From a virus (Duplodnaviria > Heunggongvirae > Uroviricota > Caudoviricetes), in IMG/VR virus record IMGVR_UViG_3300035670_000017, positions 64,850 through 128,849 of that record: DNA of 64,000 nt; one strand, given 5' to 3'. This document shows, piece after piece, positions 17,532-37,455 of this stretch; position 1 is the stretch's first letter; each line of letters starts with the position of its first letter. The notes below the pieces were generated by a model that did no database searches, was not told where the DNA came from, and saw nothing but the letters and a program-made list of their open reading frames with translations. The translations under genes were made by a program, and so were the position numbers.

Positions 17532-19460
17532 ATGGCTATCAATGTCGACCTGAACAACCTGGGCAACAACGGTGACGCACCCAAGCCCCAACCAAGCACT
17601 GACCGCAGCGAGGGTCAGCGTCCTTCCTCGGACAATTCTCGCACCTTCACTCAACAGACGAAAAACATGAGCAACATCTTCAATCCCTTCGACAACACCG
17701 GCGGTCAAGTTCTGGGCCGCATGATCCATCCTGAGTCCGGCTCCGAAGCGTTCAAGCGCGTGGTTGAGCTGCTGACCAAGACAGCTGCTGAAACCAACGG
17801 CGCTATCGAGATCTTCCCCTTCCCTCGCGAAATCCACACCGACCTGAGCCACTCGGTCATCGCTGTGGTCCGCAGCAACAAGGTCCCCGTGGGTCCCGGT
17901 CGCCCCAAGCACGATTTCGTGACTTGCCAGATCTGGATCATGGAAGCCACTGGCGAAGTGCCTCGTGCTCATGAAGTGGTCGAAGGTGGCAAGCGCTGGA
18001 TGGTGACACCCACCATCGAAGACAGCCATAACACCATCCTGGTCGAATACGTGTCTTCGACCCTGCGCAACCACTACGGCCAAGAAACCCTGGTCATGAC
18101 GATCGATCCCCTGATCATTCCTCGTGAACAAGATCTGACCAAGGACGAACGCCTGGTGGCTCAGCTGGACGTGTCGATCACCGCTGTGAACACCCGCACC
18201 TATGTGCGCATCGACGGCTTCCAGGACTACAACTACGTTGCCAACCACGGCGGCAAGGATGTTATCCTGGCTGTGTCGACCAGCATCCGTCCCGAGACCC
18301 GCACCGACCTGCAAAACCGTCCCTTCTACTCCGACGCCGAAGTGGTGGTCTCCGTGGAAAAGAACGGTCCTCGCACTCAAGGCGAAGTGTTCCACCAGCC
18401 TTCCACGACCAAGGATGTCTGCGCGACTTCCGTGATGGTGGACCTGGTGCCCGTGGACGCTGAGCTGCTGGAAGTCAACCGTTCGCACCGTGGTTCGGGT
18501 TTCCGTCCCAAGGCTGCATGGGCTCCTCGTCTGACTGCCGTCAACGTCGACCAGTTCTTCACCCGCACTCCTGCTGGTATCCTGTTTGCGCTGACCTCGA
18601 TGACACAGCTGGCTGCTGACCGCGCATACGCTGAGACTTTCCGTCCCAGCAAGCAACGCGACGCAGTGAACCTGCGTGACATCGGCTACCTGAACATCGA
18701 AGCCAACCTGGACGACGAAGAAGGCGAATACGGCAGCCGCGTGCCTGTGCAAGACGCCAGCGACAGCGAAATCGGCAAGTTCCTGGACCTGACCGTGACC
18801 CGCTTCCCTATCCTGGCCGTCGACTGCATGACCACTGGTCCTCAGGCGTACTACACCACCGGTCTGTACAACGTGGCTCGTGGCCGCAGCGACAGCGCTC
18901 GTCGCGCTCAAGCCGAACTGTATCACAGCCTGCGCTGCGCTACCAACGGCCTGATCGAGAACTTCGTCAGTCCTGACGAATCGTTCGTGGCTGACGAAGG
19001 TGAGCTGATCCATGTCGGTTACTGGATCGATGACAACGGCCGTCGCCGTGACCTGCGTGAGCTGGACAACTATCTGGCTGTGGCTGCTCTGTCCAAGAAC
19101 AACCCTCGCCTGATCGACGACTGGTGCGCTACCTACCACCGCATCGACATCGCTGAAGCTCGCCGCATGAGCGACCGCTGGAACATCCTGATGGCCATCT
19201 CGGCCAATGAGGCTGTCCAGACCGGCACCGCGCTGCGCGTGGGTATCAACGACAAGGTGGTGAGTGGTTTCGTGGACGCTCTGAGCGAAGCCAAGCTGCC
19301 TATGGTCAGCCGTGGCAGCGGCAATGGCGACGCGTTCGCAGTGCATCGTGCTGTCAGCCGTACCGCTGGCCGCTCCATGTACCGTGGTCAAGGCATGGCC
19401 CACAGCCAAGTCGCCGCCGGTGGCCGCGCTACCAGCCGTTGGGCTGCAGACCGCTTCTAA
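17532..19460 (+). CDS. highly expressed 642-aa protein; candidate phage-nucleus shell protein (chimallin-like); major capsid protein is the alternative
   Basis: GC3-rich codon usage unlike its neighbours. Disordered N-terminus (~60 aa) and C-terminus (~50 aa) flank a ~530-aa core. Followed by the RNAP beta-prime N gene, as in phiKZ gp54-gp55. Confidence 0.5.
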   Translation: MAINVDLNNLGNNGDAPKPQPSTDRSEGQRPSSDNSRTFTQQTKNMSNIFNPFDNTGGQVLGRMIHPESGSEAFKRVVELLTKTAAETNGAIEIFPFPREIHTDLSHSVIAVVRSNKVPVGPGRPKHDFVTCQIWIMEATGEVPRAHEVVEGGKRWMVTPTIEDSHNTILVEYVSSTLRNHYGQETLVMTIDPLIIPREQDLTKDERLVAQLDVSITAVNTRTYVRIDGFQDYNYVANHGGKDVILAVSTSIRPETRTDLQNRPFYSDAEVVVSVEKNGPRTQGEVFHQPSTTKDVCATSVMVDLVPVDAELLEVNRSHRGSGFRPKAAWAPRLTAVNVDQFFTRTPAGILFALTSMTQLAADRAYAETFRPSKQRDAVNLRDIGYLNIEANLDDEEGEYGSRVPVQDASDSEIGKFLDLTVTRFPILAVDCMTTGPQAYYTTGLYNVARGRSDSARRAQAELYHSLRCATNGLIENFVSPDESFVADEGELIHVGYWIDDNGRRRDLRELDNYLAVAALSKNNPRLIDDWCATYHRIDIAEARRMSDRWNILMAISANEAVQTGTALRVGINDKVVSGFVDALSEAKLPMVSRGSGNGDAFAVHRAVSRTAGRSMYRGQGMAHSQVAAGGRATSRWAADRF

Positions 19461-19506
19461 TAGAAGCACAGCCTCTAGCAATAGGGGCTTTTAACTGAAG
19501 CATACT

Positions 19507-19539
19507 CTACACTCTACCGCTTAATGCGGTAGAGTGTAG
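19507..19539 (+). terminator. terminator-like hairpin (ctacactctaccgc ttaat gcggtagagtgtag)
   Basis: 14-bp perfect stem 47 bp after the stop. Weak T-run. Confidence 0.5.
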
Positions 19540-19927
19540 GGATATGTATTTGACTACAAATTCTCTCCGTCAAGAAAATGGTATCCGCAACTGTTCGCAC
19601 AAATCTGGGTGTATTCATCGAAACCGATCGTAACATCGAGACGTCCGATTTCCTCAAAAAGTTGAAACAGAAATTCCAGCACCACCAAGATATCCGCATT
19701 CAGATCAACACCGTTGGAAACCATTTCCTGCTGGAGGGTCGCCTAAGTCAGTTTAGGCTTAAAGGGTCCTAGTAGTTCCATGTATAGCGTCTTCTCCTTC
19801 ATGGACAAGGCGACTATACATGGGGCTGCTGGGACTCTTCTTTTTTACCCTCTGTAAATATATAGACAGTAGTCTATTACTTTGAGAGCCATCTCATCCC
19901 TTCCCTTCTCAACCCTCAAGGATACTT

Positions 19928-20467
19928 ATGTCTGAAAAACAATTTTCCATGGACGATCTGAAAAAGCGCATCGAAGAGTCCGTCATCGTGAACATGGGTA
20001 TGATGATGCCTGAAGAGGCATTGAAAGAATTGGTGACCAAAGCCATCGATCGTTTCTTTTCAGCACAAGAGAAATTCGTCGTGACCCGCAATCATGATAA
20101 CGGATACAGTTCGTCGCGTGTACCGAATGTGTCATGTACCATGGAATGCTCTACGTTCGAGATGATGGTCTGGAATGCTATCTTCCCGATTGTCAAAGAG
20201 CACTTGAAGAAATTTGTGGAAGACACCAAGAGCGAACTCAATAAGGTCGTTGAGGAGACCACTAATAATCTCAACGAGAAGCTCAAGACACTGACCCTGC
20301 AAAACGCTGTCTCTGTGATCCCTGTTATACAGGAATATAAATTGCTTACTTCGGTGAACGACACCATGCGAAACATGTTGGCTAGTATCCATACTACTTT
20401 CTGTGTGAACCGATTGGAAACCGGTACACTCAAAGACCCTCTGACCGGTAACACTCCATTCTGTTGA
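19928..20467 (+). CDS. hypothetical protein (179 aa)
   Basis: CAAGGATACTTATG RBS-start. Confidence 0.5.
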   Translation: MSEKQFSMDDLKKRIEESVIVNMGMMMPEEALKELVTKAIDRFFSAQEKFVVTRNHDNGYSSSRVPNVSCTMECSTFEMMVWNAIFPIVKEHLKKFVEDTKSELNKVVEETTNNLNEKLKTLTLQNAVSVIPVIQEYKLLTSVNDTMRNMLASIHTTFCVNRLETGTLKDPLTGNTPFC

Positions 20468-25513: not shown

Positions 25514-26455
25514 ATGTCCATTTATTCACTTCCTCAAACACCTCCTTACGACTACGTCCGTTTCAAACAGATCTGTCACGGCTATGAAATTGTGTCCTCG
25601 GCTTCTCTTTTTCAAGAGAGAGTGGAATTCAGTCATATTCGCGATATGAAGACTGGTGAGACAGTCTATTATCGCTTCTTCGAGAATACACCGAAGGCGT
25701 TCTATAAAACAGTAATCGATGACGTTCAACGCGATGCCCAAAAATGGTCTAAACTTTCCAAAGAAGAAATTGAAAAGGTAATTGAAGAATACTCCAAGAA
25801 ACCAAACAAATTCCGCAATGCAAGTTTATCCGGTCGTCAGGAACCTCTTGGTGGCTTCATGTCAATTGAGTTCGAGCCTTTCGATAATTGGCTCGAAGTT
25901 TTCCTTGGACAAGAGCCTCCTATCCGTAGACACTTCTGTATTCTTCGAGATGATTGCGGAGAACAACTGTTCAAACTTTTAGACCATACATTCCAAGGAG
26001 ATGGCTTTAAGATCAATGCAGAAGTTTCACTCGAAGACGACGATTTGATTGATATCACCTACGCTGGCAGTCGACTGACTGATGATATCTTGAACTCAAT
26101 TCGTGATCTAGGTGTGACGACTAGATTTCTCAGACACTTGATCGCCTGTCCGAATAACGAGCATGCTAAACAAATGTTTGAGAAAGAGCGTATTCGGGTA
26201 GTGCGCAACCAACTCGATCTTGACCTACTGGTGAAATATGTGTTGGAACCAGAGGCTGAGTACGAAGAAGATCGCGAAGCTCTTGAACTGATGGAAAATA
26301 TCAAGAACGCAGGAGAAATTGAATTCCCATTCATTATTGGAGAGGAAAAAGTCGAGACCTACGGGTTCCCAGCTCTGGCCTGGAAATCTATCAATACTCG
26401 AATCAAAGAACTGGAAGCACAAATTCTTGATCTCCGAATTCTAAAGCAACATTAA
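25514..26455 (+). CDS. hypothetical protein (313 aa)
   Basis: Long ORF. Acidic C-terminal region. Confidence 0.5.
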   Translation: MSIYSLPQTPPYDYVRFKQICHGYEIVSSASLFQERVEFSHIRDMKTGETVYYRFFENTPKAFYKTVIDDVQRDAQKWSKLSKEEIEKVIEEYSKKPNKFRNASLSGRQEPLGGFMSIEFEPFDNWLEVFLGQEPPIRRHFCILRDDCGEQLFKLLDHTFQGDGFKINAEVSLEDDDLIDITYAGSRLTDDILNSIRDLGVTTRFLRHLIACPNNEHAKQMFEKERIRVVRNQLDLDLLVKYVLEPEAEYEEDREALELMENIKNAGEIEFPFIIGEEKVETYGFPALAWKSINTRIKELEAQILDLRILKQH

Positions 26456-26459
26456 ACAT

Positions 26460-26753
26460 ATGACAAAATTCATCGTTGTAACCGTGATGGACACGCAGTC
26501 TTTGACTGATGAGCAAAAAACTGAACTCAGAGTAGCTATTGCTACCGCTGGGTTTAAGACGCAGCATGCTTATAGTCAGACCTGTTTCTTTGATTTCCCT
26601 CCTGGGACATACGAGTATATTTCTGACACTAAGGCCAGTCATGACGTGGTTGGTATATTCACCAGCTTGGCTGCGCCTTATTTCAAACAACCACCAAAGG
26701 TGATGTGTGTCTCTTTTGGTCAGTTTTCCAGCAACCATCTCATCCGAAAGTAA
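26460..26753 (+). CDS. hypothetical protein (97 aa)
   Basis: ORF 4 nt after the upstream stop. Confidence 0.45.
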   Translation: MTKFIVVTVMDTQSLTDEQKTELRVAIATAGFKTQHAYSQTCFFDFPPGTYEYISDTKASHDVVGIFTSLAAPYFKQPPKVMCVSFGQFSSNHLIRK

Positions 26754-26765
26754 AAGGAAATCTTC

Positions 26766-27284
26766 ATGAACACGGAACGTATTCATCAAGTCACCATCCC
26801 GCTCATCAAAGAGTACCTCGAAAAAGAAATTCGAAACCGCTTCATGAGTCTGGTGTTTGACAAGGCCAAATATTCCGCTTTGGTATCAATTGCTGCTGAC
26901 CTGGCAGCTATGTGTACTAAAGAGTTCAATATCACACCTTTGGTAACTAACGACCACAAAGCTATCTTAGATCTTTCTATTACTCAAACAGAAAAGCCGA
27001 AGATAATCGTAGCGTATCCAGCTCCTCTGGATGTTGAAGACGCAGATGTTGGGTCAAACACTCGACACATGCGGCGTGGTCTTAATAACATGCGTTTAAT
27101 GAAAGCGTTGGCAGAGCTTCCTACTCCGATTTTAGTCATATTGATTAACGGCTGCCAGTACGACGAATTGAAGCAACCTCATTTCCGTCGTTTAGATTTT
27201 GGTGAACAGAGTTTCTATCTGTCATCGTCAGTTAAACTATTCACTGAGGATGAAGTCCTAACACTACGCGACAATAAATTCTGA
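26766..27284 (+). CDS. hypothetical protein (172 aa)
   Basis: AAAAGGAAATCTTCATG RBS-start. Confidence 0.5.
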   Translation: MNTERIHQVTIPLIKEYLEKEIRNRFMSLVFDKAKYSALVSIAADLAAMCTKEFNITPLVTNDHKAILDLSITQTEKPKIIVAYPAPLDVEDADVGSNTRHMRRGLNNMRLMKALAELPTPILVILINGCQYDELKQPHFRRLDFGEQSFYLSSSVKLFTEDEVLTLRDNKF

Positions 27285-27295
27285 AAGGAATCAAC

Positions 27296-27928
27296 ATGTG
27301 CAAAATTCTCTCTACTATCGTCATTGATCACGCTCAGACACCTTCCCAGGTTCCAGGTTACGCTCAGATCGTCAAGAACTTTAAGTTCATCTCTGATGAA
27401 AGTCAAATCACGGATGATGTACCTATGGCTGTCGTAGTCTGGGATAACTATGACTTCGGTCGAAAAATGGCTCTTCTGAAGAAAGCGATGAAAAAGGGTA
27501 CCTGGGTAACTATGGTTACTTTCGGCACAGGGTTTAATCCCAGTCGCTGGACATGGTGGGATAAGAACGCCTCATTAGTTGTCTCTCTCAGTGCCGATGG
27601 TAGTATCGATTTTGATGCAGAGGGAGAGCGTTACGCTCTGTCACCTGACGAAATCAATAAACAACTCACGCGTGGCTTCGAATCAGGTAATTACCACTAT
27701 ACGGTAGTCCAGCTCAGTGACCTACAATCAGAGATGGACATGATCTGGCTTAAACCTGGTGCGTCTCTCTATGACGTATGTGCTCTGGCGACTGCGTTGA
27801 ATGCAGGTATCATCTCTCCGAGCATCGGAGCTACAGATTCATTCAATGAAGCAGCTGCTTTCGGATTATCGATGGAATCCATGAAGCACGACCAGACACT
27901 CGCTATTCGACGGGCACCTAAAAGCTAA
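27296..27928 (+). CDS. hypothetical protein (210 aa)
   Basis: AAAGGAATCAACATG RBS-start. Confidence 0.5.
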   Translation: MCKILSTIVIDHAQTPSQVPGYAQIVKNFKFISDESQITDDVPMAVVVWDNYDFGRKMALLKKAMKKGTWVTMVTFGTGFNPSRWTWWDKNASLVVSLSADGSIDFDAEGERYALSPDEINKQLTRGFESGNYHYTVVQLSDLQSEMDMIWLKPGASLYDVCALATALNAGIISPSIGATDSFNEAAAFGLSMESMKHDQTLAIRRAPKS

Positions 27929-27932
27929 CCAC

Positions 27933-28145
27933 ATGAAGATACTCCATACGGCGTTTGGAGAAACTCGGGAGGTCTCTGTCGACATCTATCAAAATGGAAC
28001 TAAGATAGAGGCCACTGAGTATGATCAGGTTCTCTGGGTGGAGCGGGAAGAAGATTGGTATGCTCTGATTAGCCCAAAGTTACGTAAACAAAAAGTCGCA
28101 GTCGTCATTGCGCAGAAATGGAGAGACAGTGAAAATAATCTCTGA
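27933..28145 (+). CDS. hypothetical protein (70 aa)
   Basis: Short ORF directly after the upstream stop. Confidence 0.35.
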   Translation: MKILHTAFGETREVSVDIYQNGTKIEATEYDQVLWVEREEDWYALISPKLRKQKVAVVIAQKWRDSENNL

Positions 28146-28305
28146 TAACTGGTCGAAGAAAAAGATCAGTTTTGAAAAGCTTTCTTTTGTTCATTTTCCT
28201 TCTGCTTTCACTGAGTAATAGGGAGAAATGGGGTAAGTACACGGAGTTGAAGATTAAAAGAAGAGCCTATAAATTCATAGGCAACCAAGCAATCAAAAAC
28301 TAAGG

Positions 28306-28809
28306 ATGTCTCAAATGAGAATCACTGATCCAACACTCGTCAAAGATTATCTGATCTTTGCGTATCATGATTGTATCCATAAAAATACAGTCAAGAACAA
28401 GCATGAATACCTTATGCGGGTTTTCATGCCTAAACTGCCTGTTCTACAGGACATTGGTCAGTTGACCAGGTTCACGGATGGGTACATCAATGTACTGGAG
28501 CAAGTCGTTGCTAGATCTTTGACGTCTTTCGATGTCGATTATCTCCCGACCATGATGCTTGCCTCGTCCATTGAAATCATCCAGGAGCTAAAGGAATCCG
28601 TCTTGAGCAATCACGACTACACCCTTTATCTGAGCTGGGATGACTATGATCGAGCGATGCTCTTGCATCCGGAAGAATACATCAGCCATGAGAGTACGCG
28701 AAATGAAAGCCTGCGTACACTTTTCTCTAAGGAAGCTTATTTCACACTGAACCAAGCAACCTCAAAGCAATTCCTTCAGGCCATCATAGACTTTTACAAA
28801 GAAGTGTAG
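28306..28809 (+). CDS. hypothetical protein (167 aa)
   Basis: CTAAGGATGTCTCAAATG RBS-start. Preceded by a 160-bp non-coding spacer. Confidence 0.5.
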   Translation: MSQMRITDPTLVKDYLIFAYHDCIHKNTVKNKHEYLMRVFMPKLPVLQDIGQLTRFTDGYINVLEQVVARSLTSFDVDYLPTMMLASSIEIIQELKESVLSNHDYTLYLSWDDYDRAMLLHPEEYISHESTRNESLRTLFSKEAYFTLNQATSKQFLQAIIDFYKEV

Positions 28810-28837
28810 AAGTCTTTTACACTTTTAGAGACTAGTC

Positions 28838-29224
28838 ATGATCACCTTCATCTTAATTGTCGCGCAAGACAAGATCAGTCACCGGACAGCCCAAAGAGCT
28901 TTGCCTTTGTGGCTTCCGTCATTCGGCCCGCTTGTGTCTCGGTCTGAGATTCCTTTGGATAAGGATAGCCTAGTCTTGGGTCATCCTTATTTGAAAACCA
29001 CTGAGCAACCCGAAGGTAACTTTGTATCAGTGGCTCTTGTCACTGAACCGGAAACACAAGGTAAACGATTAGTCACCTGTGATCTTCGCTTCGAGTACAA
29101 GGACCGAGTCATGACCCCAGTCGGAATCACTGCGGCATTGGGCTTGAAGCCGATCAACGACTTTTCCCAAGTTCACCGTTTGGTGAAATTCATCAAGGAA
29201 AATAAAGACAATTCAACTAAATGA
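28838..29224 (+). CDS. hypothetical protein (128 aa)
   Basis: ORF in the + array. Confidence 0.4.
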   Translation: MITFILIVAQDKISHRTAQRALPLWLPSFGPLVSRSEIPLDKDSLVLGHPYLKTTEQPEGNFVSVALVTEPETQGKRLVTCDLRFEYKDRVMTPVGITAALGLKPINDFSQVHRLVKFIKENKDNSTK

Positions 29225-29272
29225 GTTGGCGTTACCTACCCTTCGTCAACTTTTCTCATGAGAGATTATAAA

Positions 29273-30037
29273 ATGCAAAAGAAAATCATCGCAGTAGCAG
29301 TGGCGTCTGCTATTACCCTCACAGCTTGCGGTCCTGATACTCCTACAGAAGAACAGTTTCGAAACTCTGTAGTCAGTCAGGCTGCTATGGATTCCAGCAA
29401 CCGTGACAAGATCATGGCTGAAAAGATCCAAGCTCAGATGAAGCTCCTGGATCCTTCTATCGTCGGAGTAGATCCAGCGTTCGCTGACAATCTACCCACT
29501 GTCTCCATTCATCGTCAGACAGCTGATGGTGCATATGAGAGTTGGACTATGCCACCCAAGGACTATGAGCGATTGATCGCAGAGATCTCACCGCAGTTAC
29601 GGGAAAACAAAAGCGATGACGACTACGGCATCGGCTCAGTCGTAGCTGCCGGCGCAGCCGGTATGTTGGCAGGTGCTCTGATCAGCAACATGGCGAACGC
29701 CACCAACCGCACGCGCATCCCTGATCAGACTTCCTTGGCTAACTATCGTAACGGGACTCGTTCAGTCTATAATCGACTGACTGTGGCGCGCCAAGGACGT
29801 AAGTTCGACAATGAGCGTGAGAAGGAACGCCGTGGTGGGGGCGGGTATGTATCCCCTTACATCAACCAAAACAACGCCAATACCACGCACACAAACTCCG
29901 CCGGGTATTCTGGAAAGAGCTTCCGACCAAACTCTACATCCTCCTCCAGTAGCTACTCTGCACCATCTTCTCCATCACGCTCTAGTTCGTCGGGCCGTGC
30001 ATTCTCTTCCGGTGCTCGGGGCTCGGTCAGTGGTTAA
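29273..30037 (+). CDS. lipoprotein with glycine-zipper segment and Ser-rich C-terminal tail (254 aa from ATG 29273)
   Basis: Signal peptide plus lipobox AITLTAC. Gly-zipper GIGSVVAAGAAGMLAGALISNMANA (SlyB/Pcp-like). C-terminal SSSSYSAPSSPSRSSSSG low complexity. Confidence 0.55.
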   Translation: MQKKIIAVAVASAITLTACGPDTPTEEQFRNSVVSQAAMDSSNRDKIMAEKIQAQMKLLDPSIVGVDPAFADNLPTVSIHRQTADGAYESWTMPPKDYERLIAEISPQLRENKSDDDYGIGSVVAAGAAGMLAGALISNMANATNRTRIPDQTSLANYRNGTRSVYNRLTVARQGRKFDNEREKERRGGGGYVSPYINQNNANTTHTNSAGYSGKSFRPNSTSSSSSYSAPSSPSRSSSSGRAFSSGARGSVSG

Positions 30038-30054
30038 ACAATCTGAAAGACAAT

Positions 30055-31350
30055 ATGACATTTCCCTTCATCGCAAAGAAAAAACTGACTCAACCTTTCT
30101 TGACAGTACAGGAAATTGCTGATCGCGAGACAGTCTTTTTGCAAGCTATGCTGCAAGATCCCCTGTTCAAGCGGAACTTCCTGGAGTGGTTTGAGTACTA
30201 CGATAAAAATCGTGAGAACATGCACATCTACTCCGTCAAGCGCAAGTGGGCTGAAGACATCGGTCAGCTTCTGACTGGTCTGACGACTGAATTGCATCGT
30301 TTCGTCAAAGAAGTTCTGCAACGCCACTCTCCCGAAGAACTGTTCCAGCTCTACCCGATGCCAGGTGTGAGTCAAGAGCGCTTCATCGAGTTCGCTAAAT
30401 ATGCGAAGTGGACAGCAGAGCAAAACCATCGCAACATTGGCTCTCGTTACGACTTTGCGATCAATCCATCCGGCAATATCTTCATCTATGAAATCAATGC
30501 CGACACTCCGTCGATGCTGTTTGAATCGATGAACTTGCAGAACTTGATGTCTGAGCATCTGGGTAACACTGAAGCTCAGTTCAATGAGATCTGGGAGATG
30601 TCTAAGGATAATCCTTTTGTCGGGCCTGATGAAACCGTCGCAATCGTGACGCATGACAAGTCGGGTGAAGACTTTGGTTCGGTGGAATCGATTGCTCAGT
30701 TGGCTGAGAATGGTGGCGGTACTGTTTTGTTCAGCACTTTGGATGACTTGATGTTCGACCCTGAAGAAGAGCATCGTAGTCCATTCTTCCTAAAGTCGAT
30801 CCCTGAAACAGAACTGGATAGCCTCTACGTCATGCTTCCTTGGGAAGAGATGCTTGAGTCGGAAATGAAGATCATTGAGAACTGGGAGAAGTGGTGTGAA
30901 TACGTCAACTTCTTCGAACCAGCTTGGGCTTGGTTCCTTTCCCATAAGTTCTTGCTGGCTGATTTCTGTGCTGAATACGGACGCAGTTTCTCGATCGACG
31001 GTATCACGCCGATTATCCATTTGGATTCTTCTCGAACACCAGTCGCAATTGGTGAATATGTGAGCAAGCCGGTGGTTGGACGCAAGTCTTCCGACGTAGC
31101 GATTCATTGTGCTATGTCTATCGGCCCACAAGGTCAGATATACCTGCATAAATCCAAGAACGAAACCTATTCACATGTTCCTATGGTCTATCAGCCTCTT
31201 CGTGAGACGATCAAGATCGACGGAGCAAGTGCTATGGGATGCATGTGGACTTACGGCCCATCAGCGGCTTGTCTGAGCTTCCGTGAATTCGATGGCCCTA
31301 TCCTGGAAGTTGATAACGAACGTGTCATCATGCACGAACTCGTTGATTAA
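30055..31350 (+). CDS. GSP_synth-family ATP-grasp enzyme (glutathionylspermidine synthetase-like, 431 aa)
   Basis: Motif NIFIYEINADTPSMLFES recalls the EFNADTP signature of glutathionylspermidine synthetase / YgiC-YjfC ATP-grasp proteins. Confidence 0.45.
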   Translation: MTFPFIAKKKLTQPFLTVQEIADRETVFLQAMLQDPLFKRNFLEWFEYYDKNRENMHIYSVKRKWAEDIGQLLTGLTTELHRFVKEVLQRHSPEELFQLYPMPGVSQERFIEFAKYAKWTAEQNHRNIGSRYDFAINPSGNIFIYEINADTPSMLFESMNLQNLMSEHLGNTEAQFNEIWEMSKDNPFVGPDETVAIVTHDKSGEDFGSVESIAQLAENGGGTVLFSTLDDLMFDPEEEHRSPFFLKSIPETELDSLYVMLPWEEMLESEMKIIENWEKWCEYVNFFEPAWAWFLSHKFLLADFCAEYGRSFSIDGITPIIHLDSSRTPVAIGEYVSKPVVGRKSSDVAIHCAMSIGPQGQIYLHKSKNETYSHVPMVYQPLRETIKIDGASAMGCMWTYGPSAACLSFREFDGPILEVDNERVIMHELVD

Positions 31351-31351
31351 A

Positions 31352-31474
31352 ATGACAGAAGAGCAAAAACAAAAGCGTTTCAGCGAACTCATGTCCCTTG
31401 ATGCTTGGTGGTTTCGCTTCCAGCTTCAGGGGAGATGGGATAAGCTATGTAAGCAGTTCCTGAGGAAGATGTAA
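31352..31474 (+). CDS. possible small protein (40 aa)
   Basis: ATG overlaps the upstream stop (TAAAATG). Low confidence. Confidence 0.25.
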   Translation: MTEEQKQKRFSELMSLDAWWFRFQLQGRWDKLCKQFLRKM

Positions 31475-31564
31475 CAATCTAACTAGGTTGCTGGATATTT
31501 TGAGAGAGCGGGCATACCCTTATAAGGATGGGGTTTATCATCCTTGTTTTAAAATGGAAAACAA

Positions 31565-32452
31565 ATGAAGTTTGGAAAAACAATCTGGCGTGCTCTGGCA
31601 GCCGTAGCCCTGGTTGCAGGTTTGACAGCATGCGGTGAAAAGGTGGAAGTACCTCCTGCTCACGTTGGCAAAATCATGACTAAGGATGGTTATCAGGACA
31701 ACCTGATCCCTACATCGAAGTTCCGTCTGGAGAAGTGCTGGGCGTACTGCGATCGCTTGGTTCTGCTGGATGTGTCCGACAAGGCTTATCAGGAATCGAT
31801 GTCGATCTTCATTCCTGAAGACAAGCTGAATCTGGAAGTGACGATTCGTGCTACTCTGAGTATCAACCCAAACAAGACGACCGAGCTGTTCACAGCTATT
31901 TCTCCCAAGGAAGAATCGGACCAAGTCTCGACGATCGCTAATGAGACAGTGTATCGCACCTACGCAAGTCAGATCATTCAGACTGAAGTACGCGAATATC
32001 TGAGCAAGTATTCGATCGCAGAAATCGCTTCCAGTAATGAGAAGATGAATGCAGATCTGCGCACTCAGCTGAGCAAGATCATCGAAGCCCGCACACCTTT
32101 CTCGGTGCGTTATGTCGGCATCACGAATCTGAAGTATCCAAAGATCATCACGGATGCACAAGAGTCTGCCGCTGAACGTCGTGAGGCTATTCAGAAAGAA
32201 GAAGCACAACTGGCCATCTCCAAGGCTCAGCTGGAGCGTCAACTGCAAGAAGCTAAACTGCAACGCGCTATTGACAAGGAAAAGGCTGAAACCGAAGCTC
32301 TGTCTCAGACGGTCTTGGCTCAATCCGTTGACGCGCGTGTGCTACAGTTGCGCAAGCTGGAAAACGAACGCGCCTGGATCGAGAAGTGGAATGGTCAACT
32401 GCCTACGACCGCTTTGGGTGACGCTGTTCCCATGGTGAATCTGAGCAAATGA
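31565..32452 (+). CDS. SPFH/band-7 family lipoprotein (295 aa)
   Basis: Signal peptide plus lipobox GLTAC. SPFH-like core (VGKIMTKDG ... VRYVGITNLKYPKIITDAQESAAERREAIQKEEA). Coiled-coil tail. C-terminal KWNGQLPTT. Confidence 0.55.
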   Translation: MKFGKTIWRALAAVALVAGLTACGEKVEVPPAHVGKIMTKDGYQDNLIPTSKFRLEKCWAYCDRLVLLDVSDKAYQESMSIFIPEDKLNLEVTIRATLSINPNKTTELFTAISPKEESDQVSTIANETVYRTYASQIIQTEVREYLSKYSIAEIASSNEKMNADLRTQLSKIIEARTPFSVRYVGITNLKYPKIITDAQESAAERREAIQKEEAQLAISKAQLERQLQEAKLQRAIDKEKAETEALSQTVLAQSVDARVLQLRKLENERAWIEKWNGQLPTTALGDAVPMVNLSK

Positions 32453-32745
32453 CACTTCTCTATAACCTCATGCTGCCACTCATCCTTTTGAGTGGGTTGT
32501 TCCTGACCTGGAAGTTCAAGAAGATCTGGATCTTGGCGATCACGCTATTGGTCTTGTTCATCTACTTCAAGGCTCAGCCATCTTACCTTCCCAAAGGTCA
32601 GATCAATCGCACCGCGCTACCTGCCTTTGAGGCAAAGCCTGATCTGGAGATCGAAGATCGCTTGAGTAAGCCCAAGGATCCCGATCAACGTCAGGCTGAA
32701 CAGGACGAAAGATACCGCAATGGTCTAGAGTTCATCCAAAAGTAA
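32449..32745 (+). CDS. small membrane protein (98 aa, 2 TM), translationally coupled to the SPFH gene
   Basis: ATGA overlap. TM helices LMLPLILLSGLFLTW and IWILAITLLVLFIYF. Confidence 0.5.
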   Translation: MTLLYNLMLPLILLSGLFLTWKFKKIWILAITLLVLFIYFKAQPSYLPKGQINRTALPAFEAKPDLEIEDRLSKPKDPDQRQAEQDERYRNGLEFIQK

Positions 32746-32752
32746 CCCCAGT

Positions 32753-32794
32753 ACACCAGGAGCGATGCTCCTGGTGTGCGTTACCTTTTTATTC
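32753..32794 (+). terminator. intrinsic terminator (acaccagg agcgatgct cctggtgt + T-run)
   Basis: 8-bp stem followed by gcgttacctttttattc. Confidence 0.6.
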
Positions 32795-32796
32795 AT

Positions 32797-33099
32797 ATGT
32801 CAGTCAAATACAAATACCAGGTTAAAAAGTGGTCTGAAGTCGAAGACGATGCCGAGATTTACTATCCCCTCGGAATTAATTCTGCGACACGCTCAACACT
32901 GAATGATCTGTTAGCTCTAGCATGTGCCTGGACACTGGGAGTCTACCATGTCACGGCCAGTTACGAATTTCTTCCTAAGCTTAGGTGGTTGAGTATCTTC
33001 AATGATTACCATGCTAGTTACGGGCAATCGGACCGGGTCTTCAACGCTTATGAATACGTGATTGTTCGAACAAAAAACGAACTATTTGCCTTGGACTAA
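32797..33099 (+). CDS. hypothetical protein (about 100 aa; start uncertain)
   Basis: ORF between two terminators. No clear RBS. Confidence 0.3.
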   Translation: MSVKYKYQVKKWSEVEDDAEIYYPLGINSATRSTLNDLLALACAWTLGVYHVTASYEFLPKLRWLSIFNDYHASYGQSDRVFNAYEYVIVRTKNELFALD

Positions 33100-33108
33100 T
33101 TAATCATC

Positions 33109-33161
33109 CATCTGAGTCTTAAAGACTCAGATGCAGTACCCTTTGTATTATTTTTTGTTTG
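33109..33161 (+). terminator. intrinsic terminator (catctgagtctt aa agactcagatg + long T-run)
   Basis: 11-bp stem followed by ctttgtattattttttgtttg. Confidence 0.7.
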
Positions 33162-33179
33162 TATATACTTTACTTGAAC
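33162..33179 (+). promoter_or_regulatory. motif copy 5 TATATACTTTACTTGAAC
   Basis: 31 bp upstream of ATG 33210. Confidence 0.5.
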
Positions 33180-33209
33180 TGACTTTGGTTTAAACAAAAG
33201 GAAACTCTC

Positions 33210-33431
33210 ATGACAAACACGCCGATTATTCGCATTTCTGTGAGTATCTATTTGCTGAATGAAGCAGTGGAGTATCACAAGAATAACCCTCATCTCCGTT
33301 TGGGTCAAGCCATCTATGACCATCTCGGTCTAGAGAAGATGAATCAGCACCGAGACCAACTGAATACTCTGTATCAAAAGGATGGGGAAGAAGCAATGGC
33401 TCTTTTCCATAAATTGTTCGAACTCTCTTGA
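33210..33431 (+). CDS. hypothetical protein (73 aa)
   Basis: AAAGGAAACTCTCATG RBS-start. Confidence 0.5.
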   Translation: MTNTPIIRISVSIYLLNEAVEYHKNNPHLRLGQAIYDHLGLEKMNQHRDQLNTLYQKDGEEAMALFHKLFELS

Positions 33432-33719
33432 GTGAAGCACATGGCTAATAAGAAAAAGCAATTCCTAAATAAAAGACAAAGTCAATTGACTTCCAAGATT
33501 CGCAAGACCTTGGTTAAATGGAATCAAGAAAACAAAAGCAACTTCAAGCTTCACATGTATGTCCGGGATGACCGGATTCATTACACTGATCTGGCTAAGG
33601 CTAGTTCTCGTGAAACTATGCTTGAGTTGAAACAAGCGATCGGTATCAATAACAAGCGACTCAATCAAACTGATAAGTGGCTGCGCAAAGCTGTCGCGAC
33701 TTATGACATCTTTCTCTGA
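33432..33719 (+). CDS. hypothetical basic protein (95 aa)
   Basis: Starts at the upstream stop. Lys-rich. Confidence 0.45.
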   Translation: MKHMANKKKQFLNKRQSQLTSKIRKTLVKWNQENKSNFKLHMYVRDDRIHYTDLAKASSRETMLELKQAIGINNKRLNQTDKWLRKAVATYDIFL

Positions 33720-33750
33720 TATCAGAGAAATCCAACCTAAGGAAACCAAT

Positions 33751-34038
33751 ATGCTTTCAGTGGAAGATCTCCAAGATCCTATTTTCAAGACCGACTTTCA
33801 ACCTGAGCCGGGTAAATACCATGTAGCTTTTACCAAAGAGGTACTGACCCAGGTGAACGATGGTCGTAACTTTACGCTGATAAAGACTTTCGACGACGAT
33901 ACTCCAGTAGAAGAATGGCAAGCTTGCGTCTCAAAGCTGTTTAAATCTTTCGACATCTTTGGCGTGCTTTTGATCACTCCCGAAGGAGAGAATCATCTTT
34001 ATTGTCCCAAGCCTCCCAAGAACACCAATCTCAATTGA
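33751..34038 (+). CDS. hypothetical protein (95 aa from ATG 33751)
   Basis: AAGGAAACCAATATG RBS-start. The track's earlier start overlaps the upstream gene. Confidence 0.45.
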   Translation: MLSVEDLQDPIFKTDFQPEPGKYHVAFTKEVLTQVNDGRNFTLIKTFDDDTPVEEWQACVSKLFKSFDIFGVLLITPEGENHLYCPKPPKNTNLN

Positions 34039-34052
34039 CAAAGGAATTCATC

Positions 34053-34436
34053 ATGGGCTACGATATCCGTATTGGTGAAAAGATGCGAGGAGTCCTTGAC
34101 CCCGAAATAGGTGAGCAAACCTATGTGGAAGCGATCTTCATACCTGGCTCTCCTAGTGTAGTTAATACTACACTCCATACGGCGTCCAGTAACGTCGTAT
34201 TCACATCCTATTCCGGGCCGCAGTACGTTATTGAAAATACCGAGATTGAAAAATACGTACGCTTTGCTCATATTGAGCAACCAGTCACGGAAGAAATGGA
34301 GCGAGGACTAGCTGCTTGTATCGCTGCTTATCAAGGCGATCGCCAAGGATACAGTTTTTCCTTGTTGCAATGGATGCACTGGTGGGTAACCTACAGTTTG
34401 GATAATTGCTCCAATCCTGTAATTGTCATGAATTAA
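34053..34436 (+). CDS. hypothetical protein (127 aa from ATG 34053)
   Basis: AAAGGAATTCATCATG RBS-start. Confidence 0.45.
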   Translation: MGYDIRIGEKMRGVLDPEIGEQTYVEAIFIPGSPSVVNTTLHTASSNVVFTSYSGPQYVIENTEIEKYVRFAHIEQPVTEEMERGLAACIAAYQGDRQGYSFSLLQWMHWWVTYSLDNCSNPVIVMN

Positions 34437-34446
34437 TGGATAAATC

Positions 34447-34941
34447 ATGCTCGACTTAATCAACCTTTTTCGTCACGCAGTAATTAGTGTCGGTAAAGAA
34501 CCAAAGATCATCTTTGAACGTCTGATAGCTGCGACTCAGATAACAGAAGCACCTGCTGTAACATTATTAACAGGTCACATAGATTACCATGGTAGCTGCA
34601 GTGCAGACGCAGCCCAAAAGCTCAATAATGAGCTGGTTAAGAAGTTTGGAATTCATTCCTGGGTACACAATGGTTCGTCCAGTGTGGGTGTGGAGGAAAA
34701 TGATGATGCGTATTCGATTATATTCATCGATATCCGATTAGAGCGACTCGTCGAACATGTTTACATCAATAGTGACTACGGTATGAGAACTGATTTCTTA
34801 GGAAATCGTATCCATATCTCGATAACAACTGCGACATCAAAGACCCCCTGGAAATACGCTCTAGAAACAATGCTTACGAGCGTTCTGGACTCTAAGCAGT
34901 TGGAAAATCTGACTTTTAAAGTAGACAAGAAGTCTACTTAA
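34447..34941 (+). CDS. hypothetical protein (164 aa)
   Basis: ORF in the + array. Confidence 0.45.
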   Translation: MLDLINLFRHAVISVGKEPKIIFERLIAATQITEAPAVTLLTGHIDYHGSCSADAAQKLNNELVKKFGIHSWVHNGSSSVGVEENDDAYSIIFIDIRLERLVEHVYINSDYGMRTDFLGNRIHISITTATSKTPWKYALETMLTSVLDSKQLENLTFKVDKKST

Positions 34942-35038
34942 TAAAGATGTTTAGAAAAACATTAGTGGCAAGATTGGTCAGTTGTTACATCCATAACCTG
35001 ATTGATCATCCCAGAAATCCCACATACGTACCGGATAT

Positions 35039-35365
35039 ATGAAAATAGAAATATTTAGCTCGGGTTCGCTCCAACGAGGTAATTTTCAGATTCCGAAAAG
35101 TATCACTGTTATTGTAGCGAGGAATCCTCTTGAAGCCTTAAAGCAATTTGCCAAGATAAATAAGATTGAGGGACAAGAAAATGAAATAGAAATTTACAGT
35201 GACAAATGCATGAAACTCAATGGGTTTCTGTATTACACTGATAAAGAAATAGCTGATAGTAATTTTGCTGATTCTATTCGAACTGCTCTGGGATCAAAGA
35301 TTTTGTCGATTAAAGAGGGTGATGATCGGAGGACATCATTCATATTGGAATACAACGATGAATAA
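35039..35365 (+). CDS. hypothetical protein (108 aa)
   Basis: ORF preceded by about 95 bp of spacer. Confidence 0.4.
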   Translation: MKIEIFSSGSLQRGNFQIPKSITVIVARNPLEALKQFAKINKIEGQENEIEIYSDKCMKLNGFLYYTDKEIADSNFADSIRTALGSKILSIKEGDDRRTSFILEYNDE

Positions 35366-35445
35366 TTGCAACGGGGGTATGGTATTAACCACACCCCCCT
35401 GACTGTTAATTTCATTGTTAGGTGTTTAAATAAAAGGAAATACGA

Positions 35446-36105
35446 ATGTTCAGTAACTTCATTAAAAACAAAGAAACCATTCAATTCCCATTGATGATCG
35501 CCGGTGGAGGTAATACTTATAAATCCACGATCGCTATCATCGTCGCACTGCAAAAGGCATATGAACAAGGCGGAAATTGCTCGGTTCAATTCGTTGCAAA
35601 TTGGAGTCATTTTTGCTTCGAGCAATTGATCCTCGCTGTCTCTCGTGCCACAGGAATTGATTCGCAACTGATTGAGGGGTGGTTAATTAGTAATAAGATA
35701 AACCTAAACGTCTCTTGCGAGATAGATACAAGTTCCGCAGATACCCGGTATATCATCATTGATGAAGTAGTTGAGTATCTTTGGTCGAAAGAATATCCCC
35801 CTGAGGATAGTTCGTATATTAAATATCCGACAACTATTAAGAACAATGCACTGAAGCTCCTGGAACTAACAAAGGACTATGAACTATTGTTGGTATGTCC
35901 GCTTCGAACAAACTTAGTCTTATTCACTGGCCCAGGAAGCCCTGGCCAGAGTCTTCCTCAGAAAAGACTAGACGAAGTAGTTAAAACGACGCTGGTCCCT
36001 GTTTGCAAGTCGTTTATCAATACTTCTCCATTGAAGACCAACTCATCTTTTTCTAACCCCAAGAAAATTAAAACCAGCAACGAATTTATTAAAGTCCTAG
36101 GGTGA
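35446..36105 (+). CDS. putative P-loop NTPase (219 aa, deviant Walker A)
   Basis: AAAAGGAAATACGAATG RBS-start. Walker-A-like MIAGGGNTYKST and Walker-B-like RYIIIDEVVEY. Confidence 0.4.
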   Translation: MFSNFIKNKETIQFPLMIAGGGNTYKSTIAIIVALQKAYEQGGNCSVQFVANWSHFCFEQLILAVSRATGIDSQLIEGWLISNKINLNVSCEIDTSSADTRYIIIDEVVEYLWSKEYPPEDSSYIKYPTTIKNNALKLLELTKDYELLLVCPLRTNLVLFTGPGSPGQSLPQKRLDEVVKTTLVPVCKSFINTSPLKTNSSFSNPKKIKTSNEFIKVLG

Positions 36106-36395
36106 ACATAATGCTATTCCCACATCAAAAACAGTTTATGGATGTCATAGAACAACTGACAACAACTCAAATACCTGAGCGTCCGAAATTCAATATCAAT
36201 CGTGTTTACGGAAGCATGAATTTCGACAAGACCTATGGTTCAGGCTACGATGATACGGAAGTAAGTAAATTGCTAGCGGAGCGTAAAGAAGCTAAGCGCC
36301 AGTATTTCATCAGTCGCAATCGGGTCGCAGTATCGATGAAGATCGCATCCAGTAGCACCTATATCAAAGCGCGCAATCGCAGAAAGAAACTATGA
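36102..36395 (+). CDS. hypothetical protein (97 aa)
   Basis: ATGA overlap with the upstream gene. Confidence 0.4.
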   Translation: MNIMLFPHQKQFMDVIEQLTTTQIPERPKFNINRVYGSMNFDKTYGSGYDDTEVSKLLAERKEAKRQYFISRNRVAVSMKIASSSTYIKARNRRKKL

Positions 36396-36458
36396 AACTG
36401 ATATTCTATCCTTCCCATTATAAGCACAGTGATTCAGGTAACTACCAGGAGAATCACT

Positions 36459-36710
36459 ATGTCCCGAACATTCCGCCACTCTCGCACTCACACCAGCTTC
36501 TTCGCTATGACTGCGGCTGGTCGCCTATTGGCTAAACAGACCAACTTCCATAAGCTCTTGACCGACAACCTTCGCCCTTTCTATAAGAACGAGCTGTTCG
36601 GCTATGAGCGCAAGGAGATATCACGCTTTATGCGCCGCAAGGACAATCAGTCCTTGAAGAAGGATATGGAATCCTTCATCCCTGTGAACAAAAACCAACG
36701 CAAATACTAA
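36459..36710 (+). CDS. small basic protein (83 aa from ATG 36459)
   Basis: AGGAGAATCACTATG RBS-start. Arg/Lys-rich. Confidence 0.45.
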   Translation: MSRTFRHSRTHTSFFAMTAAGRLLAKQTNFHKLLTDNLRPFYKNELFGYERKEISRFMRRKDNQSLKKDMESFIPVNKNQRKY

Positions 36711-36719
36711 TATGACATA

Positions 36720-36764
36720 CTACCTAGACCCTATGCGGTCTAGGTAGTAGTTATCTTTATTTTG
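36720..36764 (+). terminator. intrinsic terminator (ctacctagacc ctatgcg gtctaggtag + T-run)
   Basis: 11-bp stem followed by tagttatctttattttg. Confidence 0.7.
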
Positions 36765-36777
36765 AAAGGATCCATAT

Positions 36778-37455
36778 ATGTACCGAAGTGTTATGACTTC
36801 CAATAACACCCAAGTGTTCTTTCCTGAATTCAAGGCAGAACGTATTCATATGCAAAAGTTCCATAAGGAAGAAGGTCTGCCTGAATATCTCCGCCGATGG
36901 CAGGACACAGTTGACGCAATGTTGGTTGACGTTGATACGGATAATCCCATTTTCATAATGATCGATCAAGGTATTGTGAAAGCCGGGCAGCCTCATCGTC
37001 GTCCAGGTCACCATATCGATGGTTACTGGATAGAGGGCATAAGTGCACATCGCAGTGATCGAGGAGGTAGCCATCAAACAAGAGCACCTAATCATCACAC
37101 ACATCGTCAAACGCACACTTTCCGCGAACCTTCACCCGGTGGCCACGAAAATAGGCCGCGCCATGCTATCGGATCCGGTGATTCGGAATTGTTCTTGAAT
37201 CACCCTGAAGCCATCATCTTGGCTTCGGATGTATCTGGATGCATCGGATACACCGGTTCTTGGACGGGTGAGATTGGTGACGGCGGCGACTTGGAGCATC
37301 TCGATCTCAGCCACATGGAAAAGCATGTATTGCAACCCAATCACTCGTACATCGGTAACGTAGGATTCATTCATGAATCGGTTCCGATTGATTTCGACTG
37401 TCAACGAACCTTAGTTCGACTCAATGTCAAGAACTGGGAACCTAAGTTTCAGTGA
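36778..37455 (+). CDS. hypothetical protein with His/Arg/Gly-rich low-complexity centre (225 aa)
   Basis: AAAGGATCCATATATG RBS-start. Central HRRPGHHIDG...HQTRAPNHHTHRQTHTFREPSPGGHENRPRH. Confidence 0.45.
   Translation: MYRSVMTSNNTQVFFPEFKAERIHMQKFHKEEGLPEYLRRWQDTVDAMLVDVDTDNPIFIMIDQGIVKAGQPHRRPGHHIDGYWIEGISAHRSDRGGSHQTRAPNHHTHRQTHTFREPSPGGHENRPRHAIGSGDSELFLNHPEAIILASDVSGCIGYTGSWTGEIGDGGDLEHLDLSHMEKHVLQPNHSYIGNVGFIHESVPIDFDCQRTLVRLNVKNWEPKFQ

Follow-up and report, generated by a model that had tools for sequence, protein, structure and literature searches.

A stretch of 64,000 nucleotides from a tailed phage (Caudoviricetes; positions 64,850 to 128,849 of the IMG/VR record IMGVR_UViG_3300035670_000017), hereafter called the window, carries on its plus strand four co-oriented genes for a predicted lipoprotein that we name LP1, an ATP-grasp ligase of the GSP_synth family, a second predicted lipoprotein with an SPFH/band-7 domain and a small protein with two transmembrane (TM) helices, TM2. 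An earlier note on this DNA had grouped them into one envelope-associated module with a possible role in polyamine or thiol metabolism, and the locus raises two questions: do the four genes belong together, and what does the ligase join to what? The listing of open reading frames (ORFs) confirmed the four genes (29273-30037, 30055-31350, 31565-32452 and 32449-32745), and comparison with related loci showed that they are two adjacent, separable two-gene envelope cassettes and no single obligate module: cassette 1 is LP1 plus the ATP-grasp ligase, and cassette 2 is the SPFH lipoprotein plus TM2. We believe, with a probability of about 0.55, that in these two cassettes a membrane-tethered ligase joins a polyamine to an acceptor, possibly the tail of LP1, beside a periplasmic SPFH scaffold.

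Two separable gene pairs

The locus was compared with eight metagenomic relatives (L030-L037), whose ligases range from 91% down to 39% identity. An LP1 homologue lies directly upstream of the ligase in all eight, whereas SPFH and TM2 genes follow the ligase just in the three closest ones and not in L033-L037. The idea of one four-gene module thus has to be given up, since LP1 and the ligase stay together down to 39% identity and SPFH and TM2 accompany them in the three closest relatives alone. In L033-L037, a strong G+C-rich hairpin with a T-run stands straight past the ligase stop, conserved in position but with different stem sequences.

A partner of the same architecture is encoded upstream of the ligase in six cultured phages, the partner/ligase pairs being gp89/gp91 in PhiW-14, 094/095 in VPMCC14, gp104/gp102 in phiPMW, gp278/gp277 in Lu11, 176/177 in SYP, and the corresponding genes of HRDY3. 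These partners display a lipobox, the periplasmic motif DP(S/T)(I/V)KD...DENG...VVRE, a Gly zipper and a Ser/Arg/Gly tail ending in SSGG. The partner in Aeromonas phage 44RR2.8t (ORF096c) is a bona fide Pfam DUF1190 protein (1.9e-21), and those of LAh_9 and Motura are Cys-rich and DUF1190-like by sequence features. In the phage records inspected, the conserved upstream lipoprotein is labelled as hypothetical or as a generic membrane protein. The ligase and the SPFH protein are direct members of phrog_6215 and phrog_200, which are already annotated in PhiW-14, phiPMW, Lu11 and T4-like Aeromonas phages, among others, and the literature found treats phage GSP_synth and SPFH genes as isolated genes of unclear function.

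The ATP-grasp ligase

The second gene (30055..31350, plus strand; 431 amino acids) was assigned to a YgiC/YjfC-like ATP-grasp acid-amine ligase of the GSP_synth family from Pfam, PHROG, PDB and structure-model comparisons. Its product matches the Pfam family GSP_synth (PF03738) over residues 68-418 (E 1.2e-35; 123.8 bits versus a cut-off of 29.3) and phrog_6215 at 3e-59, carries the motif E-I-N-A-D-T-P at residues 146-152 and, among PDB sequences, matches YgiC (7uk8, 3e-6) and YjfC (7uk6, 1e-5), and then trypanothione synthetase. An AlphaFold2 (AF2) model built on 19 homologues had a predicted local distance difference test score (pLDDT) of 86.9 and a predicted TM-score (pTM) of 0.89. With this model, Foldseek gave YjfC (7uk6) as the top match (E 9e-23; query TM-score, TMq, 0.70), together with GspS (2io8; 1e-20, TMq 0.71), YgiC and trypanothione synthetase (2e-16), the TMq values being 0.70-0.73 overall. 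As modelled, the enzyme would have the ATP-grasp fold of the GspS synthetase domain. The earlier note had named the absence of this fold beforehand as refuting its call for 30055..31350, and the fold is present, as is the INADTP motif that it pointed out.

We aligned the ligase with GspS, YgiC, YjfC and phage homologues. Residues R131, D133, E146, N148, D150, K298, K338, R343 and R410 are invariant and correspond to R316, D318, E330, N332, D334, K498, K533, R538 and R598 of GspS, among which R316, D318, E330, N332, K498, K533, R538 and R598 are those that we take to be the Mg/ATP and acyl-phosphate residues. An acidic pair, E205/D206, aligned with E391/E392 of GspS. The ligase has in common with GspS and trypanothione synthetase the ATP-grasp fold, the R-x-D ... 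E-x-N-A-D motif, the Lys/Arg ATP-phosphate residues and the acidic amine-binding pair. It differs from GspS in lacking the N-terminal CHAP amidase, a domain for which Pfam returned no match in the 431 residues, and in the replacement of the glutathione-contacting positions: T151/P152, M154, E411, R423 and H427 are as in YgiC and YjfC, while GspS has S335/A336, C338, G599, D610 and L614 there. The NCBIfam model of the bifunctional Gss scores the ligase at 24 bits versus a cut-off of 882. With YgiC and YjfC the phage enzyme is just ~20% identical, but it has the same fold, the same catalytic residues and the same substitutions at the GspS glutathione site.

The RefSeq product name of both E. coli YgiC and YjfC is peptide--spermidine ligase. 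A 2025 review (PMC11762307) describes YgiC and YjfC as devoid of glutathionylspermidine synthetase activity and as ligating spermidine to peptides in vitro, and presents YgiC as a peptide-spermidine ligase whose physiological substrate is unidentified. Considering that the phage ligase has YgiC/YjfC-type residues at the GspS glutathione site, it is probably no glutathionylspermidine synthetase and, since YgiC and YjfC lack that activity, the role in glutathione or thiol metabolism that had been suggested for it is unlikely. We read the phage enzyme, on its sequence and its model, as an active YgiC/YjfC-like acid-amine ligase and not as a glutathionylspermidine synthetase. Its closest cultured-phage match is gp91 of PhiW-14, with 32% identity; searching IMG/VR for the ligase with a back-translated pattern yielded no confirmed locus.

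The lipoprotein LP1 and its relation to DUF1190

LP1 (29273..30037, plus strand; 254 amino acids) is a predicted lipoprotein with a single membrane crossing, as judged by hydropathy, charge asymmetry, the AF2 model and the pairing with the ligase. It begins with MQKKIIAVAVASAITLTAC, and an alternative ATG start is found at 29258. Its signal, MQKKIIAVAVASAIT-LTAC, parses as MQKK-IIAVAVASAIT-LTAC, that is, a charged n-region, an h-region and a lipobox (L-T-A-C) with Cys19, which is the pattern of bacterial lipoproteins (substrates of signal peptidase II). The lipobox pattern used was [LVI][ASTVI][GAS]C after a positive n-region and a hydrophobic h-region. An exhaustive HMMER search gathered an LP1 family of 147 cluster representatives (88 at E<=1e-10), 143 of which were used for the counts of charge, lipobox and C-terminus, and the lipobox was found in 131 of the 143, far above chance. 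In ten sampled representatives, the cluster members were unnamed or called 'hypothetical protein', and came mostly from phage-sized metagenomic contigs and from a few Pseudomonas genomes. The pattern and its conservation are the grounds on which we regard LP1 and the SPFH protein (Cys23; 19 of 21 homologues, see below) as predicted lipoproteins, in agreement with the earlier note.

Past the signal, LP1 comprises an acidic alpha+beta domain (residues ~26-111) that is predicted to be periplasmic, a Gly-zipper helix, a basic helix (152-187) and a disordered, Ser/Gly/Arg-rich tail that ends in ...AFSSGARGSVSG. The Gly-rich hydrophobic segment spans residues 119-137 (to 142) and has a Kyte-Doolittle 19-residue mean of 1.84. 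In the AF2 model, pLDDT is 85-91 at residues 30-100 and 80-93 at 150-180, the tail being disordered except for the basic helix, and the mature protein has no Cys apart from that of the lipobox. Between lipobox and zipper, the net charge is negative in all 143 representatives (mean -9); beyond the zipper, it is positive in 142 of them (mean +11). Judged by the positive-inside rule, such an asymmetry is compatible with an N-domain held in the periplasm by a lipid anchor, a single TM helix and a tail on the cytoplasmic side, so that, from sequence, we infer for LP1 a periplasmic acidic N-domain, a Gly-zipper TM helix and a basic cytoplasmic tail. The family C-termini are GG in 88 and GS in 21 of the 143, with S-A-R-x-G-G-Y-S-x-G-G as a recurring end. 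LP1 had been described as carrying a SlyB-like glycine zipper, but it gave no Pfam match at E<=1, the SlyB-type Gly-zipper models PF13488, PF13441 and PF05433 included, and the segment is better read as a single TM helix; among 12 proteins related or analogous to LP1, the Gly-zipper models produced weak matches in two.

In E. coli, ygiB and yjfM carry the annotation DUF1190, and their partners ygiC and yjfC that of a peptide--spermidine ligase. In YgiB-YgiC and YjfM-YjfC (7uk6-7uka), as in the phage, a lipobox protein is encoded directly upstream of a GSP_synth-family ATP-grasp enzyme of ~390-430 amino acids. YgiB, YjfM and LP1 all have a lipobox, a Gly-rich hydrophobic segment and a Ser/Gly/Arg tail with GG at its end, the last being in LP1 a trait of the family; YgiB orthologues end in RS(M/L)GG in 115 of 120 cases, although these are close relatives and thus non-independent. 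The TM-like segment of LP1 is more clearly hydrophobic than that of YgiB. In contrast with DUF1190, LP1 has neither the four-Cys periplasmic domain nor a match to the Pfam model and, unlike the E. coli pairs, the phage pair lacks tolC or yjfIJKL neighbours. A profile hidden Markov model (HMM) of LP1-type proteins scored the Gly-zipper segment of 44RR2.8t ORF096c at 15.9 bits, versus -3.2 +/- 3.1 for shuffles of that segment. Ten weak matches of the LP1 profile in the C-terminal half were also considered as possible DUF1190 proteins and, by Pfam scan, none is. LP1 has a DUF1190-like architecture and gene position (lipobox, Gly-rich segment, Ser/Gly/Arg tail, location upstream of a YgiC-type ligase), and we file it as an analogue of DUF1190, with the same architecture and genomic role and, as its sequence suggests, a different ectodomain.

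The SPFH lipoprotein and TM2

The third gene (31565..32452, plus strand) encodes an SPFH/band-7 lipoprotein of 295 amino acids that matches Pfam Band_7 (PF01145; 3.8e-10, 40.5 bits versus a cut-off of 23.6), phrog_200 ('lipoprotein'; 9e-50) and the PH stomatin 3bk6 (2e-4). Its signal, MKFGKTIWRALAAVALVAG-LTAC, parses as MKFGK-TIWRALAAVALVAG-LTAC, with the lipobox cysteine at position 23. The lipobox is present in 19 of 21 SPFH homologues, far above chance, and stands directly before a conserved G(E/Q)(R/K)VEVPP. The SPFH domain (residues 29-221) is followed by a charged, helical and coiled-coil-like region (~200-270) and a hydrophobic C-terminal end. Its homologues in phages of Aeromonas, Pseudomonas, Variovorax and Xanthomonas show 55-69% identity to it.

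Its stop codon overlaps the start of TM2 (32449..32745, plus strand; 98 amino acids) in an ATGA, which indicates translational coupling, so that the SPFH core and the coupled two-TM protein are as first described. TM2, assigned from this overlap, hydropathy and the adjacency of its homologues, has TM helices at residues 1-19 and 26-44, joined by a K/R loop, and its charged tail contains a conserved QPSY(L/M)PKG. Pfam gave for TM2 no match besides DUF2645 at E 0.92 and no NfeD domain, and the alignment suggests that it is a conserved family of its own, marked by QPSY(L/M)PKG. If the basic loop faces the cytoplasm, the charged tail should end up in the periplasm, where the SPFH domain is also predicted to be.

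SPFH and TM2 genes are adjacent in eight phage loci (L001-L006, L008 and L025) and in 11 chromosomal loci of Comamonas and Acidovorax (Comamonadaceae; L040-L050). The pair, with overlapping or near-abutting genes, occurs without the ligase in the ~100-kb phage contigs L001-L006 and L008 and in Aeromonas phage 4L372XY. The phage pair and the Comamonas/Acidovorax chromosomal pair are 75-88% identical in amino acids and 71-78% in nucleotides, and the chromosomal cassette has a G+C content of ~0.50, below that of its flanks in several loci. The high identity and the low G+C suggest that SPFH plus TM2 has been exchanged between phages and bacteria, and hint at a Comamonadaceae host.

Phage SPFH proteins have been described as poorly understood (PMC7760394). 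Here, as in HflK/HflC and in SPFH-NfeD operons, the SPFH domain is anchored to the membrane and precedes a helical region, and translational coupling to a small membrane protein is common to the SPFH-NfeD operons and this locus. The predicted periplasmic orientation of the phage protein is also HflK/C-like. However, its predicted anchor is a lipobox lipid and not a TM helix as in HflK/C and, in contrast with SPFH-NfeD, the TM2 partner has no NfeD domain.

Association of the two pairs

The two cassettes are adjacent just in the clade of the window. Phage SYP has both, ~47 kb apart, and in 44RR2.8t the gene for an SPFH protein of another kind, anchored by a TM helix, lies five genes away from that for the ligase, with the DUF1190 gene in between. 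This 44RR2.8t protein (ORF098c; L028 3516-4439) is annotated as 'lipoprotein', lacks the lipobox Cys and has an N-terminal TM anchor; its neighbour ORF097c bears a pilin-type N-methylation motif.

Ravi et al. (2024) reported bacterial operons in which DUF350 and DUF2491 accompany a GSP-like ATP-grasp ligase, a lipoprotein of the DUF1190 type and a K+ channel; the set is joined to a PspA dyad or, in one variant, to a band-7+2TM protein (PMC11237479). These operons resemble the phage locus in uniting a GSP-like ligase, a lipoprotein and a membrane-dynamics protein, and they make the envelope-associated theme proposed earlier for this locus a reasonable one. They differ from it in that here the band-7 and 2-TM parts are separate proteins and the band-7 protein is a secreted lipoprotein. 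In the Pfam scan of the neighbouring genes, no PspA, CesT/Tir, DUF350, DUF2491, S-adenosylmethionine decarboxylase or polyamine oxidase gene was detected. The link between the cassettes is facultative, a loose association of separable units for which there is a bacterial precedent.

The K+ channels and DUF350 of those operons are echoed in phages LAh_9, VPMCC14 and Motura. K+-channel-like small proteins adjoin the ligase pair in LAh_9 (gp031, L087 1743-2117, with TIGYGD) and VPMCC14 (VP14_096, L029 6092-6748, with TVGFGD). The Motura string (L086 2072-5665) encodes a homospermidine synthase, a 127-residue Cys-rich, DUF1190-like lipobox protein ending in AGG, the gss homologue, a small ORF and a 4-TM protein, possibly DUF350-like, and looks like a compact phage copy of a yjfKLMC-type operon; the clustering of the Motura gss homologue with homospermidine synthase has been reported (PMC9992855). 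Proteins of 46-84 amino acids with one or two TM helices are encoded between or after the lipoprotein and ligase genes in phiPMW (L082 2107-2247), PhiW-14 (L026 5801-5995), Lu11 (L083 3775-3987) and HRDY3 (L084 3757-4011), and may be a third component of the cassette. The SYP version includes a 13-TM transporter.

Other features of the locus and of the phage

The 214-bp gap between the ligase and SPFH genes holds a small ORF of 40 amino acids, MTEEQKQKRFSELMSLDAWWFRFQLQGRWDKLCKQFLRKM (31352..31474, plus strand), basic and Trp-rich, that had been overlooked in the earlier note and starts 2 nt past the ligase stop. It is conserved among the closest relatives (95% amino-acid identity in L030 and L031, 74% in L032), with many synonymous differences, and is absent in L033-L037, where the terminator follows the ligase. 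Considering that three relatives keep it with synonymous changes, it is probably translated. Directly 5' of the SPFH start, the plus strand shows a hairpin (31524..31550) formed by AAGGATG, 8 nt and CATCCTT, then GTTTT; it is identical in L030-L032, scores under the threshold of the terminator scan, and is possibly a weak terminator or attenuator between the cassettes. The gene string is closed by an intrinsic-terminator-like hairpin found by the same scan (32751..32779, plus strand), with a 13-bp stem that has 8 G-C pairs. Two long minus-strand ORFs (30034-30774 and 31538-32323) overlap the genes; they lack support and were treated as shadows. A sigma-70 promoter scan fared no better than shuffles, and such a scan is ill-suited to chimallivirus promoters.

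The phage origin assumed at the outset is confirmed by other genes in the window, which encode chimallin (17532-19460; phrog_4795, 6e-43), a beta subunit of the non-virion RNA polymerase, a DNA polymerase and an NAD ligase. With the gene for chimallin, the nuclear shell protein, as a marker, the source is a nucleus-forming jumbo phage. It is a very divergent one, its chimallin being about 22-24% identical at most, over most of the length, to any cultured-phage chimallin. The 2-kb stretch around this gene (18001-20000) has a G+C content of 0.56, versus ~0.45 elsewhere in the window, and the 64 kb contain no tRNA genes. A megablast of 28800-33200 against INPHARED phages gave no match. As to the superinfection exclusion and the protection against host defences that the earlier note had raised as possibilities, PADLOC gave no defence-system match for any of the five locus proteins. 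Pfam found no family in the ten ORFs flanking the locus (25514-37455), so there is no lysis or polyamine-biosynthesis context among them.

Proposed mechanism and alternatives

We propose that cassette 1 would be the phage counterpart of the bacterial pairs of a DUF1190 lipoprotein and YgiC or YjfC. LP1 would be exported and lipid-modified at Cys19, with its acidic domain in the periplasm, its Gly zipper across the inner membrane and its strongly basic tail in the cytoplasm, and the cytoplasmic ligase would act at the membrane with LP1. Using ATP, the ligase would convert a carboxylate into an acyl-phosphate and join it to a polyamine, and the likeliest carboxylate would be the small-residue (usually Gly-Gly) C-terminus of the LP1 tail. 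Cassette 2 may build, around TM2 or together with it, a membrane-bound SPFH assembly of the HflK/C kind that faces the periplasm, and both cassettes may condition or stabilise the host envelope across the long jumbo-phage infection. GspS, the paradigm enzyme of the family, amidates the C-terminal glycine carboxylate of glutathione, and the conserved Gly-Gly end of the ligase's partner would therefore be an obvious candidate substrate. The more specific proposal, namely that YgiC/YjfC-type ligases, the phage enzyme included, polyaminate their own LP1-type or DUF1190 partner at the C-terminal carboxylate of its cytoplasmic tail, is tentative and, taken by itself, doubtful.

Several observations weigh against this model. 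LP1 is not demonstrably a DUF1190 (PF06693) protein, with no Pfam match at E<=1; hhalign of LP1-type versus DUF1190 profiles aligned the signal peptide alone; an HMM of mature LP1-type proteins scored YgiB and YjfM no better than segment shuffles; and the LP1 profile matched only the 32-residue Gly-zipper segment of one DUF1190 protein. The LP1 of the window ends in -SG and some close relatives in -SS or -AS, so that a strict C-terminal Gly is unneeded. The Gly-zipper segment is just moderately hydrophobic in part of the family (Kyte-Doolittle value >=1.2 in 101/143) and E. coli YgiB has been described as a predicted outer-membrane lipoprotein (PMC11762307); were the tail periplasmic, it would be out of reach of a cytoplasmic ligase. 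Among the neighbours scanned there is no polyamine-biosynthesis gene and, since SPFH and TM2 are absent beside the ligase in most lineages, a joint function of the two cassettes would be facultative.

It is possible, though rather unlikely, that the ligase makes a soluble conjugate of a polyamine with a small molecule or short peptide, which would buffer or sequester host polyamines, LP1 being an anchor, a regulator or a periplasmic sensor and no substrate. This would agree with the tripeptide substrate of GspS, with the variable C-terminal residue of the LP1 family, which is not strictly Gly, and with the periplasmic domain of LP1, conserved and, in the model, confidently folded, which could sense something. 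It would also agree with the in vitro activity of YgiC and YjfC on peptides and spermidine, as given in the review (PMC11762307), and with the linkage of a phage gss homologue to homospermidine synthase (PMC9992855). However, it leaves unexplained both the retention of the partner gene in every lineage examined and the conserved ...GG end of a disordered tail, which recurs in two partner families unrelated in sequence, LP1-type and DUF1190.

That the enzyme is a genuine glutathionylspermidine synthetase that remodels thiol and polyamine metabolism, the four genes being one obligate envelope module as the earlier note had it, is improbable. The Pfam family name and the PHROG annotation 'glutathionylspermidine synthase' point that way, and the four genes are indeed contiguous, co-oriented and closed by one strong terminator. 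Yet S335, A336, C338 and D610 of GspS are T, P, M and R here, as in YgiC and YjfC, which lack that activity, and there is no amidase domain; moreover, SPFH plus TM2 is not beside LP1 plus ligase in L033-L037, PhiW-14, phiPMW, Lu11, HRDY3 or VPMCC14, and elsewhere occurs alone.

The lipobox and one downstream TM helix of LP1 are also the layout of a u-spanin (PMC7760394), a Gly at +2 would permit sorting of its lipid anchor to the outer membrane, and the second gene downstream of the ligase in Lu11 is a Cor-like exclusion gene, all of which would suit a lysis protein or a superinfection-exclusion lipoprotein whose adjacency to the ligase is incidental. We consider this very unlikely in view of the strict ligase adjacency in about 8 phage lineages and, for DUF1190, in bacteria, as well as of the conserved 110-residue tail past the helix, which our model places in the cytoplasm, and of the lack of an endolysin or holin among the neighbours scanned. 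Finally, a role of the ligase in polyamine DNA hypermodification, to which its closest cultured-phage match, gp91 of PhiW-14, might point, is scarcely credible, because ATP-grasp ligases form amide bonds from carboxylates whereas the putrescinyl-thymine linkage of PhiW-14 is an amine-methylene bond and no amide, the same gene pair exists in many phages not known for such DNA and in E. coli, and the constant partner of the ligase is a membrane protein. The spanin and the hypermodification explanations were thus rejected on the adjacency, bond-chemistry and neighbour evidence, and we retain the model of two envelope cassettes with a membrane-tethered, polyamine-conjugating ligase.

Significance

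YgiC/YjfC ligases are widespread, and the locus gives a testable hypothesis for the problem of their substrate. In phages of many lineages, the ligase has been retained with a lipoprotein whose periplasmic domain is unrelated to DUF1190 but which has the same Gly zipper, basic tail and Gly-Gly end, and this independent phage replicate suggests that the tail is what the ligase works with or modifies. At least 147 LP1-type cluster representatives are without a Pfam model and constitute a family to name. The envelope-directed accessory functions of jumbo phages would grow by a membrane system linked to polyamines and by a mobile SPFH+2TM cassette. If the tail is indeed modified, C-terminal polyamination would be an undescribed protein modification that turns a membrane-anchored tail into a polycationic arm, the physiological substrate of E. 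coli YgiC and YjfC would be named, and phages would have captured tail polyamination as a means to manipulate the host membrane at its inner face.

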